Shown piece after piece: positions 18,215 through 46,078 of a stretch of 64,000 nt of DNA. Position numbers and translations under genes: made by a program. This DNA is from Christensenellales bacterium (GTDB taxonomy: Bacteria > Bacillota > Clostridia > Christensenellales > DTU072): assembly GCA_050945855.1 (NCBI GenBank), contig JBMNTS010000005.1, forward strand, positions 326 through 64,325, read 5' to 3'. Within the stretch, counting starts at the first letter, position 1. Every line of letters begins with the position of its first letter. The notes under the pieces are model-generated. The model did not search any database. It was not told where the DNA came from and saw only the letters and a program-made list of their open reading frames with translations.

Positions 18215-18381
18215 CAATTAATAAGAAAAAAGCCTTGAGAACACTATAAATCTACCTTAACACGCCGCAGGCGTATTGCATTTCGGCATAAGCCGAAATT
18301 GCATATTGCCGGTATAGGCAATATTTCATATTGGCGCAAGCCAATATTTAATTGCGCCGCAAGGCGCCTTGCGGACGCGCA
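18215..18381 (+). repeat. dispersed intergenic element: about 45-nt head plus array of 6 short hairpins with conserved ATTGCAT-type spacers
   Basis: Hairpins are ACGCC-gca-GGCGT, TTCGGC-ataa-GCCGAA, ATTGCC-ggtata-GGCAAT, ATTGGC-gcaa-GCCAAT, GCGCC-gcaa-GGCGC and TGCG-gacg-CGCA. Spacers are ATTGCAT, ATTGCAT, ATTTCAT and ATTTAAT. 18257-18304 matches the reverse complement of 51777-51824 at 46 of 48 positions (manual alignment). Confidence 0.75.
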
Positions 18382-35203: not shown

Positions 35204-36451
35204 ATGAGCAAGTACAACCCGTTTGAGCAATTTCAGGCAAATTTGGATATGGCGGCCGAGGCGTTGGATTACAGCAGAAAGGATTATGAAACTTTCCGTT
35301 ATCCAGAGCGTGAGTTAACCGTTTATGTTCCGGTGGAGATGGATGACGGCTCCATAAAGGTTTTTAAAGGATACAGGGTGCAGCATTCCACGGTCAGAGG
35401 GCCGGGAAAGGGCGGCATAAGATTTCATCAGGACACGGACCTGGAAGAAGTCAAGGCGCTGGCGGGTTGGATGAGCTTAAAATGCGCGGTTGCCAACATA
35501 CCTTACGGCGGCGCGAAAGGGGGAATATGCGTTGACCCCTTCAAATTGTCCAAAGGAGAGCTGGAGCGGCTTACCCGCAGATATACTTCCATGATAGCGC
35601 CCATAATAGGGCCGCATAACGATATCCCCGCCCCCGACGTCAACACCAATGACCAGATAATGGCGTGGATGATGGATACCTATTCCATGCTTGCGGGATG
35701 CACCACGCCCGGCGTGGTTACGGGCAAGCCTTTGGCGATAGGCGGCTCATTGGGCAGAAAGGAAGCTACGGGCAGAGGGGTAATGTTCATTACCAAAGCG
35801 GTAGCGGAAAAATTGGGTATTAAGATGCAAGGCCTTCGCGTTATAGTGCAGGGCTTCGGAAACGTCGGCTCCACAACGGCGGCGTTTCTTGCAGAGCAAG
35901 GCGCAAAAATCGTGGGCATAAGCGATATTAGCACCGCTATTTACAATGAGGACGGCATTGACATACCCGAAGTGCTGCGCCAGAAAGGGAACGGATTGCT
36001 AGACAAAGTAACCGTGCCCGGGGAGAGAATACCCCTTAATAAAATACTTACGGCGGACTGCGACGTACTTATCCCCGCCGCGCTGGAAAACCAGATAGTG
36101 GAAAGCAACGCGCGCGACATTAAAGCTAAGATTATCGTGGAAGCCGCAAACGGTCCCACATCAGTGGAAGCGGACAAGATTTTGGCGGAAAGAGGCATTA
36201 TCGTTATACCCGATATCCTCGCCAACGCGGGCGGCGTGGTGGTAAGCTATTTTGAATGGGTGCAAAACCTGCAATCCTTAATGTGGGAAGAAGCGGAAGT
36301 AAACCAAAGAATGAAAAAGCTGCTCATTACCGCGTTGTATAAAATCATTGGCATTGTGGAGGGCAAAGGCGTATCCTACCGCAAGGCGGCGTATATGATA
36401 GCCTTGGAGGCGCTTTGCTCCAGCATGAAAGTAAGAGGTATTTTTCCTTAA
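35204..36451 (+). CDS. gdhA: glutamate dehydrogenase (Glu/Leu/Phe/Val dehydrogenase family)
   Basis: GYRVQHSTVRGPGKGGIRFH catalytic-lysine motif and NAD(P) site QGFGNVG. The track start at 35090 adds 38 non-homologous residues. The ATG at 35204 gives the usual roughly 415-aa protein. Confidence 0.9.
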   Translation: MSKYNPFEQFQANLDMAAEALDYSRKDYETFRYPERELTVYVPVEMDDGSIKVFKGYRVQHSTVRGPGKGGIRFHQDTDLEEVKALAGWMSLKCAVANIPYGGAKGGICVDPFKLSKGELERLTRRYTSMIAPIIGPHNDIPAPDVNTNDQIMAWMMDTYSMLAGCTTPGVVTGKPLAIGGSLGRKEATGRGVMFITKAVAEKLGIKMQGLRVIVQGFGNVGSTTAAFLAEQGAKIVGISDISTAIYNEDGIDIPEVLRQKGNGLLDKVTVPGERIPLNKILTADCDVLIPAALENQIVESNARDIKAKIIVEAANGPTSVEADKILAERGIIVIPDILANAGGVVVSYFEWVQNLQSLMWEEAEVNQRMKKLLITALYKIIGIVEGKGVSYRKAAYMIALEALCSSMKVRGIFP

Positions 36452-36474
36452 TCAGGTGAAAAATATATCAATCG

Positions 36475-36514
36475 AAAGGGCGCCTTCTTATTGAGTAATA
36501 GGGGGGCGTTTTTT
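36475..36514 (+). terminator. rho-independent terminator of gdh
   Basis: 12-bp stem CGCCTTCTTATT-gagt-AATAGGGGGGCG (including G:U pairs) followed by TTTTTT. Confidence 0.7.
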
Positions 36515-36517
36515 CGT

Positions 36518-36602
36518 GTGTCCTGCGGACACATGATGTACTCACCGGCGGGAGCATGATGTACAAGGCTACGCCTTGCATGATGTGTAAAGACTGCGTC
36601 TT
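36518..36602 (+). repeat. hairpin array with conserved (C)ATGATGT(A/G) spacers
   Basis: GTGTCC-tgc-GGACAC / ATGATGTA / CTCaCC-ggc-GGGAG / CATGATGTA / CAAGGC-tac-GCCTTG / CATGATGTG / AAGAC-tgc-GTCTT. Period 23-24 bp. Confidence 0.7.
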
Positions 36603-36643
36603 GACATTATAAGTGACGTGTAACAGCTCCCTTTTAGCTTTTA

Positions 36644-37678
36644 TCATCGCGGAGCGGCTACGACCTCGTTTATTCTGTCCCTGTAAAAATCATCCGGTTT
36701 CTGTTTAACCACATAGCAATGTGTGCCGGCGGCATCCTCCTCAAATTCGTTTCTGCCGTTGGAAAACACCACTACCCTGCCCGCTACTTTTGAAAAGCCC
36801 GCCTCTTCGGGAGAGCCGATAACCGCTAAATAAGCTGTCATAGGGTCCCATGAACTTCTGCCCCCTATTGCGAATTGAGCACGCAAACAGCGATAGAGCA
36901 AATCGTCGGCACCCAGCTCGCGGCGGATGGTGCCCCCTGTTTTCACGTCCTTTCCGCATTCAAAACCCAAAAACACGATAGGTGTAACCCAACGCTCGCA
37001 TATAGTAATTGCTGATTGAACGGACAAGGGCTTGTGTCGGATATTGTATTCCCGCCCTTGGGGGAATTCTCCCGCCATAGCCCACAGCGTACCCACCCGC
37101 TCACGCACCAGTTCGCTGCCGGTGAGCGGCGAATACTCATCGGGAGGGCTGTCCAACAACCGCGCCAGACTATTCATAAATCCCACGGAAATTATGTCGG
37201 CTTTCACTCCTTCGGGCAAGCCGGCCAAGGTCTTGCGGTAAAATAATACGCTGTCCGTGTATTCGGAGGAAGTCCGGTAAATACTGCCTCCGCCGTGCCG
37301 GATAGCGGCACCGTGATAGGCGGAGGTGATTGCGTACCGTGTCGCCCGGCAGTCTACGGCAATGGGCAGACGAATGCCCTCGTTTGCGACAAAACTGTCC
37401 AAAGCCGGGCCGGACGTTTTGATGGGCGCGTTAATATTTACGCCCAACAGCGTTATCTCTCCCGCCAAATGCTTGCGTACCAGATACCTGACCGCCACCG
37501 CGTCGTCCACGTCCGCAAGCCAGTCCGTATCCAGAATAAAACAGCGATTTGTCCCGGAGACAACAATCTCCTCCGGCTGTTGGTTGACGATAGTCACTTT
37601 GGCGCAACCGGTAAGCAAGCACGCCAAGCAGATTATCTGCGTCAACAACAGCGCAATTTTAAATGAATTTTTTCTCAT
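36644..37678 (-). CDS. lipoprotein with nucleoside hydrolase (IUNH)-like domain
   Basis: Preferred start is the ATG at 37678 (RBS GGGAGGG, 5 nt). Signal peptide with lipobox LTGC. FILDTDWLADVDDAVAV resembles the DxDxxxDD nucleoside-hydrolase signature. Confidence 0.55.
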   Translation of the reverse strand: MRKNSFKIALLLTQIICLACLLTGCAKVTIVNQQPEEIVVSGTNRCFILDTDWLADVDDAVAVRYLVRKHLAGEITLLGVNINAPIKTSGPALDSFVANEGIRLPIAVDCRATRYAITSAYHGAAIRHGGGSIYRTSSEYTDSVLFYRKTLAGLPEGVKADIISVGFMNSLARLLDSPPDEYSPLTGSELVRERVGTLWAMAGEFPQGREYNIRHKPLSVQSAITICERWVTPIVFLGFECGKDVKTGGTIRRELGADDLLYRCLRAQFAIGGRSSWDPMTAYLAVIGSPEEAGFSKVAGRVVVFSNGRNEFEEDAAGTHCYVVKQKPDDFYRDRINEVVAAPR

Positions 37679-37826
37679 AGCGACCCTCCCGAATACCAAT
37701 CAACAGCTTGGTCAGGCTTTACTTTCTTATTCTATCATATTTCCGGTATTTCAAAGCCGTTTGACTGATTTTTTATCTCTTGCGGCGATTAGACCGTGAA
37801 TCTGACAGACAAATGGCGCATTGGCG

Positions 37827-45994: not shown

Positions 45995-46078
45995 TTGCGT
46001 CCGCAAGGCGCGCCCTGCGAACGCAAATGATACGTTCCCTTCGGGAACATGATACACGCCCTTACGGGCGCATGATAC
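45995..46078 (+). repeat. hairpin array with conserved ATGATAC spacers
   Basis: A long hairpin TTGCGT...ACGCAA encloses GGCGCGCC. Then ATGATAC / GTTCCC-ttc-GGGAAC / ATGATAC / CGCCC-ttac-GGGCG / cATGATAC. Period 22-23 bp. It begins 1 nt after the stop of the 44564 gene. Confidence 0.7.

Follow-up and report, generated by a model that had tools for sequence, protein, structure and literature searches.

Downstream of gdh in an uncultured Christensenellaceae-type Clostridium, four different mini-hairpins alternate with a nearly constant short word, directly 3′ of the gene's terminator. Does this array serve gdh, is it an RNA gene in its own right, or is it one copy of a repeat dispersed through the genome? 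We analyzed it within a 64,000-nucleotide stretch of DNA (the window) from this organism (source genome G000) and compared it with related genomes, among them G031 (metagenome-assembled genome CAYSNP01), a sister species of the same genus.

A four-hairpin array behind the gdh terminator

The array spans positions 36518-36613 on the plus strand, between gdh and a convergent accessory gene, and comprises the following features:

35204..36451, plus strand: gdh (Glu/Leu/Phe/Val dehydrogenase family), 415 aa; context, outside the repeat
36478..36514, plus strand: gdh intrinsic terminator, with a G-U-rich stem, loop GAGT and a T6 tract (RNA fold)
36515..36532, plus strand: array 5′ edge CGT together with hairpin 1 (sequence, folding)
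36518-36532, plus strand: hairpin 1, GTGTCC-TGC-GGACAC (sequence, folding)
36532..36540, plus strand: linker 1, CATGATGTA, written (C)ATGATGTA after hairpin 1 (word search)
36541..36554, plus strand: hairpin 2, CTC(A)CC-GGC-GGGAG, imperfect, with one bulged A (sequence, folding)
36555..36563, plus strand: linker 2, CATGATGTA (word search)
36564..36578, plus strand: hairpin 3, CAAGGC-TAC-GCCTTG (sequence, folding)
36579..36587, plus strand: linker 3, CATGATGTG (word search)
36588..36604, plus strand: hairpin 4, (TA)AAGAC-TGC-GTCTT(GA) (sequence, folding)
36605..36613, plus strand: terminal degenerate linker, CATTATAAG, and array end (sequence)
36644..37699, minus strand: convergent accessory gene P0002; context

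The gdh product matches Pfam PF00208 (9.5e-76) and PF02812 (1.4e-57), shares 84% identity with its G031 counterpart, and is called as the exact same 415-aa protein in two other assemblies. P0002 has no Pfam match, and its N-terminus appears lipoprotein-like on our own reading of its sequence. Elsewhere in the window, a cluster of four tRNA genes lies on the minus strand at 1005-1332.

The layout agrees with a preliminary description of this DNA, which had reported four hairpins with a near-invariant spacer and a 23- to 24-nt period behind a bona fide gdh terminator. The terminator, overlooked by a simple terminator scan, folds as RNA into a stem of 12-20 bp followed by the T6 tract, and it is kept in G031, where the array is absent. 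The CGT at the 5′ edge is comparable to the ACGTA or AAGTA found at the starts of other arrays. The core of hairpin 4 measures 5 bp and its extension contains one A.G mismatch, and the CATTATA(T/A) that follows this hairpin also closes arrays with CATKATGTA linkers (here termed B-type) elsewhere; the tail beyond 36613 showed no significant similarity to the array tails of G031. On neither strand does a T run follow any of the four hairpins, as it would in an intrinsic terminator.

The hairpin-linker array at 36518-36613 is real. The word CATGATGTR occurs three times in the window, all inside the array, against 0.43 expected, and the linker pair ATGATGT-N10-20-CATGATGT occurs three times over the entire 1.47-Mb assembly (mean in 40 Markov-3 genomes, 0.0), which bears out the enrichment over shuffled sequence on which the preliminary description had staked the pattern. 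A degenerate form of the linker pair was found five times genome-wide compared to 0.025 in the same 40 simulations. Furthermore, the array is base-for-base identical in the two independent public assemblies that encode the same gdh product, neither of which shows strain polymorphism. Folded alone as DNA, it reached z scores of -2.7 (plus strand) and -2.1 (minus strand), and together with the gdh terminator, folded as RNA, -4.5. Hairpin chains counted regardless of linker were not enriched (11 versus 7.6 in Markov-3 genomes), so that structure alone does not define the family; the non-random signal is the fixed word combined with a hairpin. Since BLAST of the array against its own genome yielded only the self-match, its relatives are visible only through this combination.

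The simulated genomes and the identical array in other assemblies exclude a chance pattern or an assembly artefact. Public gene calls do include a 59-aa ORF that runs across the gdh terminator and the array (36468-36647, minus strand). It is almost certainly spurious, because the linker read on the reverse strand has no stop codon in any frame, and the 23- and 24-nt periods yield no repeated peptide. The probability that the array is chance, artefact or coding sequence is therefore next to nil.

The regular alternation of conserved and variable segments recalls CRISPR arrays, in which repeats of 23-50 nt alternate with non-palindromic spacers of similar length in the company of cas genes. Here, in contrast, the conserved part measures 9 nt, the variable part is self-complementary and 13-18 nt long, and the period is 23-24 nt. 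A CRISPR array was rejected on this geometry, and the only CRISPR-repeat model match (14.9 bits against a gathering score of 35) lies outside the array.

The CATKATGTA-linker sub-family and its Watson-Crick stems

In this analysis, we defined a CATKATGTA-linker sub-family by pairs of CATKATGTR words with a Watson-Crick hairpin filling each gap. The array behind gdh carries at least two such words 11-20 nt apart whose gaps are end-anchored Watson-Crick hairpins, and it is thus a solo, one-armed member. The pattern ATKATGTA-N11-20-CATKATGTA was found in 18 of 401 genomes of the order Christensenellales, with 53 matches in G031 and 17 in G215, which belongs to a different GTDB family, whereas the same pattern read backward gave eight matches in total. 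Relatives occur in G031, G022, G215, G192 and others. These counts support the suggestion that spacer words define sub-families. Within G000, the word flanks hairpins at C16:2505-2650 (six hairpins), C39:9428, C14:21317, C3:69950 and C10:7657. At the last two loci, the arrays run on into ATGCAAT-linker units like those at 18262-18381 of the window, and the two types are likewise fused in G031; the idea that the window's two arrays share one architecture with different spacer words is therefore correct.

The stems had been called unrelated to each other, which holds within the array but not beyond it, where each stem has a paralogue elsewhere in the genome. Hairpin 1 is matched by GTGCCC-TTT-GGGCAC at C39:9434, with a compensatory T-A to C-G change; hairpin 2 by a perfect CTCCC-loop-GGGAG at C10:7665 and C3:69950; hairpin 3 by CAAAGGC-TAAA-GCCTTTG at C16:2596; and hairpin 4 by TCAAGAC-TAAA-GTCTTGA at C16:2568, which is likewise followed by CATTATA. 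In addition, stems throughout the family share a CC/GG apex.

Among 72 distinct inter-linker segments, the majority are perfect hairpins anchored at both linkers (6/6 segments of 13 nt, 17/21 of 14 nt, 7/11 of 15 nt and 9/16 of 18 nt). The stems covary: in 16 ungapped B-type units, 96.3% of the cells are paired, with no one-sided changes and 20 double-sided changes, compared to 6.1 in shuffles, none of which reached 20 in 500 trials. These pair counts refer to the ungapped subset; MAFFT could not align stems of different length in register. Stems of the Gut-1 type, introduced below, comprise 554 Watson-Crick pairs, no G.T and two C.A (103 distinct stems). Taken together, the two types show no G-U among about 630 stem pairs, whereas the adjacent gdh terminator has several. 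This contrast speaks for a constraint acting on both strands or on the DNA itself, and less for one acting on a single RNA.

On the linker-sense strand, the loops read T-N(-N)-C, most commonly TTC, TAC, TTAC and TGC, and on the opposite strand they read GNA or GNNA. Such loops are those of very stable DNA mini-hairpins. A strand test based on G-U versus A-C mismatches found no G.T and two C.A in the clean set, too few to name a strand. The few C.A cases and the GNA/GNRA-like loops hint at the opposite strand, while the gene-end polarity described below points the other way.

In G031, about seven hairpin cassettes recur in varying order and number, and this shuffling points to the gain and loss of units through identical linkers. 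According to this scheme, a unit of about 23 nt would consist of a fixed single-stranded word and a perfect mini-palindrome of 5-7 bp drawn from a genome-wide cassette repertoire; units would come and go by recombination between identical linkers, and stems would drift from one Watson-Crick pair to another.

Extragenic palindromic mosaics with conserved linkers and alternating orientation at the 3′ ends of genes are also seen in REP/BIME elements (REPINs) of Enterobacteria and Pseudomonas. Like these, the array is extragenic, palindromic, dispersed and mosaic, which could suggest mobilization by a RAYT (Y1 HUH) transposase. REP stems, however, are conserved and linked to RAYT, whereas here the linker is conserved, the stems vary and no 5′ GTAG word is present. 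The RAYT/Y1 profile PF01797 had no match in the six genomes searched (G000, G031, the array-rich G012, G032, G070 and G079), and the candidate partner in this family is instead a 115-aa four-helix-bundle protein. A RAYT-driven origin is thus scarcely credible.

Other linker mosaics were observed along the way. In intergenic mosaics of G215 (L159-L164, on C6), CATGATGTA units occur together with ATTCCGMA octamers in tandem and hairpin arrays with ATATCGAG linkers, in blocks that reappear at many loci. Pattern scans of viral and metagenome DNA found hairpin arrays at 0/7 viral loci and 6/87 loci overall, the others being ordinary tandem repeats.

Gut-1 elements and the PF05635 gene

The closest described relative of these arrays is Gut-1 (Rfam RF01706), catalogued as a probable non-coding RNA by Weinberg et al. 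in 2010 (PMC2864571). The Gut-1 model did not match positions 36440-36660 even at E <= 10, so that the array is not Gut-1 by the Rfam gathering score (50 bits), and Rfam as a whole gave only sub-threshold noise on it at permissive thresholds. With 38.7 bits (E = 1.8e-6), the sister array at 18270-18354 falls short of the gathering score, and G000 carries two Gut-1 copies above it, of which C16:285-357 reaches 53.5 bits. When the array was examined for the Gut-1 heptamer, it presented four hairpins and a fixed linker with the word AUGAUGU inside its 9-mer, one substitution away from the AUGAUAU of Gut-1-scoring G031 arrays. In both, short hairpins with variable stems and T-N(-N)-C loops are strung on a fixed linker of the purine-TGA type, and both come from the same hosts, uncultured gut-type Clostridia. 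They differ in that the linker is 9 nt (CATKATGTA) here and 7 nt (RUGAAAU) in Gut-1, and in that the published motif covers one arm, filed as a small RNA, whereas the family seen here is a dispersed two-armed repeat. Since G022 has CATGATGTA arrays without any Gut-1 match, the sub-families are separable, and B-type and Gut-1-type units are nonetheless physically fused in single arrays of G000 and G031.

Gut-1 matches occur in 32 of the 81 family genomes, above threshold in 20, and the element behaves as a high-copy repeat within this GTDB family: single genomes carry as many as 38 copies or more, and many copies lie at contig ends. Such dispersal is unlike a single small RNA gene. The class that Weinberg et al. 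gave to Gut-1 (PMC2864571) would make the array an independent small RNA gene, and the array does fold better than shuffled sequence. However, the T6 tract of gdh abuts it, no promoter-like site lies upstream, and no terminator follows, which makes such a gene very improbable.

A complete Gut-1 element starts with a forward arm (RTGAWAT linkers), continues with a center in which GTTGTGG or GTTAAGG is joined by a repeated copy of the first stem arm, and ends with an arm carrying the reverse-complement linker. G031 regularly combines forward arms of the B type with reversed arms of the Gut-1 type, and in the other GTDB family it is B-type arms, one reversed and one forward, that oppose each other. 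The array behind gdh has one arm only, as CATGATGTR is absent from the minus strand of the window. A two-armed Gut-1 copy above the Rfam threshold is present in G000 at C16:285-380 and C16:515-856, with a near-identical copy at C26:1258-1353; it stands behind a terminator-like hairpin close to the beginning of the contig, and the gene after it is of the DUF6054 family (8e-46) instead of PF05635.

The ORF 163 nt behind a complete Gut-1 element belongs to PF05635 (3e-24). An initial panel of 16 genomes showed PF05635 in 9/11 with arrays and in 0/5 without (p = 0.005). Across the 81 family genomes, where the table tallies Gut-1 matches and not B-type arrays, 18 have both, 14 have Gut-1 only (including G028, with 23 Gut-1 matches), 5 have PF05635 only and 44 have neither; the resulting Fisher p of 1e-5 carries no phylogeny correction and is inflated by shared ancestry. 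All 14 PF05635 loci inspected have a hairpin array or a linker tract directly upstream. The array is two-armed at seven of them (L182, L183, L184, L185, L190, L193 and L194) and cut by a contig end at two (L181 and L192), and the remaining five (L180, L186, L187, L189 and L191) have inverted heptamer tracts without hairpins. One of the 14 is B-type, and the apparent link between B-type arrays and PF05635 comes from this one locus, the truncated L192.

Each of the three PF05635 paralogues of G215 stands behind a word of its own (RTGAATT, TCGATAT or CATGATGTA). In a small tree of the proteins, the four linked to heptamer tracts cluster although they come from four genera (support 86/97), and the B-type-linked protein groups with ATGAAAT-linked ones (80/84), so that paralogues group by array type and not by genome. 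The four heptamer-tract proteins forming this clade are those of L186 (G070), L187 (G032), L189 (G030) and L191 (G012), where the gene follows a tRNA gene and a terminator and the upstream tract reads CTTCACT... and then ...AGTGAAG, resembling linkers without hairpins. At L180 (G022 C7:44598-44915), the PF05635 gene contains an in-frame TAG and is flanked by runs of the heptamers GTTTGTG/GTTTGGA upstream and by their reverse complement downstream.

To our knowledge, PF05635, a 115-aa four-helix-bundle protein, has no catalytic motif. Its structural relative Avd binds nucleic acid and reverse transcriptase in diversity-generating retroelements (DGRs). The family has been described as resembling Avd (PMC10053308) and also includes the proteins of 23S rRNA intervening sequences. 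It is this gene family that follows complete arrays, although the arrays inspected had neither a reverse transcriptase nor a template repeat nor an rRNA context next to them. The studied copy differs further in having no PF05635 gene nearby, its neighbors being gdh and P0002. The only PF05635 match in G000 is a truncated fragment (C66:3926-4123, 26.8 bits against a cut-off of 33.8) that covers profile positions 36-105 and has an in-frame stop upstream; the genome being 93% complete, an intact gene could sit in the missing part or in a collapsed repeat.

From these data, one may ask whether the array is a live binding platform, with its single-stranded linker words serving as sites for a PF05635 or other nucleic-acid-binding protein at the locus. 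The position of PF05635 behind such arrays at all 14 loci inspected, the grouping of paralogues by word, CATGATGTA among them, and the properties of Avd would all fit such a role. Nevertheless, binding itself is putative, G000 offers only the truncated fragment, and the array has a single arm and two damaged stems, all of which makes a working platform at gdh quite unlikely.

On a wider scale, hairpin-linker arrays (Gut-1 and its linker variants) and PF05635 proteins may form an unrecognized two-component system, a tentative idea that we hold to be possible but on balance doubtful. Each paralogue would read its own 7- to 9-nt word, presented in single-stranded DNA or RNA between hairpins that are free in sequence but strictly Watson-Crick, and would either spread the arrays or use them as a scaffold. 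Spread would lead to sites behind terminators and stop codons, and solo arrays would be its footprints. If true, this system would explain both the orphan Gut-1 motif and the orphan 23S-IVS protein family, two families that in either case gain a testable partner.

Gene-end polarity and the status of the copy behind gdh

The arrays of this family have a preferred place and orientation. At seven G000 loci and five loci in G022, G031, G192 and G379, linker-sense arrays start -16 to +18 nt from the stop codon of the co-oriented gene, and this placement was never seen in reverse orientation (12/12, p = 2e-4). Several of these arrays have the stop codon within their first linker or loop. Two arrays, one at G000 C3:69950 and the other following an rplL-like gene of G031, are located between the stop codon and the intrinsic terminator. 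Often they begin right after the T tract of a terminator, as does the array studied here; this was the case for at least six Gut-1 loci in four genomes, mostly behind tRNA genes. The convergent setting noted in the preliminary description thus applies to gdh and P0002 but is no rule, since family-wide the gene upstream of an array, whose stop codon or terminator the array follows, is co-oriented with it.

A simple possible cause of this polarity lies in the linker itself, which carries TGA in the sense orientation; in its reverse form (TACATCATG, ATTTCAT), all three frames are open, as the spurious minus-strand ORF over the studied array illustrates. Each reverse insertion at a gene end would then append a long tail of junk, and such insertions would be purged.

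The same polarity could reflect selection for a cis-acting, REP-like RNA element of the 3′ untranslated region (UTR), transcribed with the upstream gene and tuning its expression, with hairpins that block 3′-to-5′ exonucleases or stall terminating ribosomes where they abut the stop codon. REP elements, whose generic effects on mRNA stability and termination are known, act in this manner in E. coli (PMC12306157), and the two arrays lodged between stop codon and terminator fit such a role. Such a role is plausible for the sister arrays that abut stop codons. The case is weak at gdh because a full terminator intervenes: little sense transcription is expected beyond it, and the convergent gene would read the array antisense. 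Moreover, the lack of G-U pairs is unusual for a structure selected only as RNA, and the polarity has the simpler cause given above. Altogether, we consider a selected 3′-UTR function of the copy behind gdh rather unlikely.

Comparison with G031 indicates where the array stands. There, a different convergent gene follows the gdh terminator, and P0002 is missing; its homologues are only 37-42% identical and occur in 3/81 family genomes. The array therefore sits where a conserved gene end meets a lineage-specific block, and since the downstream gene differs as well, this comparison yields no clean insertion boundary. The terminator is older than the array, which, as judged from these sequences, is neither specific to gdh nor a conserved feature of it.

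We favor the explanation that the array is a solo, one-armed, non-autonomous copy of a hairpin-linker repeat dispersed in the Christensenellales, and probably a passive relic. Complete members of the repeat are two-armed elements positioned after a terminator or tRNA gene and directly before a small PF05635 (Avd-like) gene, and the studied copy would be a forward arm left at the gdh terminator, at the junction where the accessory gene block joined. As G000 seems to have lost its partner PF05635 gene and two of the four stems are already imperfect, the array would act, if at all, only as hairpins; any local effect would come from four stable hairpins between convergent units, as a barrier to 3′ exonucleases or to read-through. 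Most likely, it is not a gdh-specific regulator and does little at its own locus. Against the relic reading, the array is identical in three assemblies, so that decay is not visibly ongoing, and the rate of imperfect stems in G000 is not clearly above that found elsewhere.

So far, elements of this kind have been recorded only under the orphan Gut-1 motif (PMC2864571), with REP/BIME elements as an analogy, and our literature search found no description of such arrays in Christensenellales. The CATKATGTA sub-family across two GTDB families, the Watson-Crick-only stems, the absence of RAYT, the gene-end polarity with its possible cause and the independent check of the PF05635 link are new here. 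While the array carries little weight for gdh, the family matters more, as the Gut-1 "RNA" of 2010 is one of the linker variants of a modular repeat that is widespread and high-copy in gut Clostridia. In metagenome-assembled genomes of the clade, this repeat also explains why contigs often break and small ORFs are spuriously called.

Two further arrays were also observed in G000. A third array of the window, with ATGATAC linkers and a TRF period of 23, lies at 45995-46078 (C5:46320-46404), 0 nt after the stop codon of a gene encoding 476 aa, and a small array with ATGATAT linkers (ACGCC-TGC-GGCG and ACACGC-TAAA-GCGTG) is found at C19:2842-2880.
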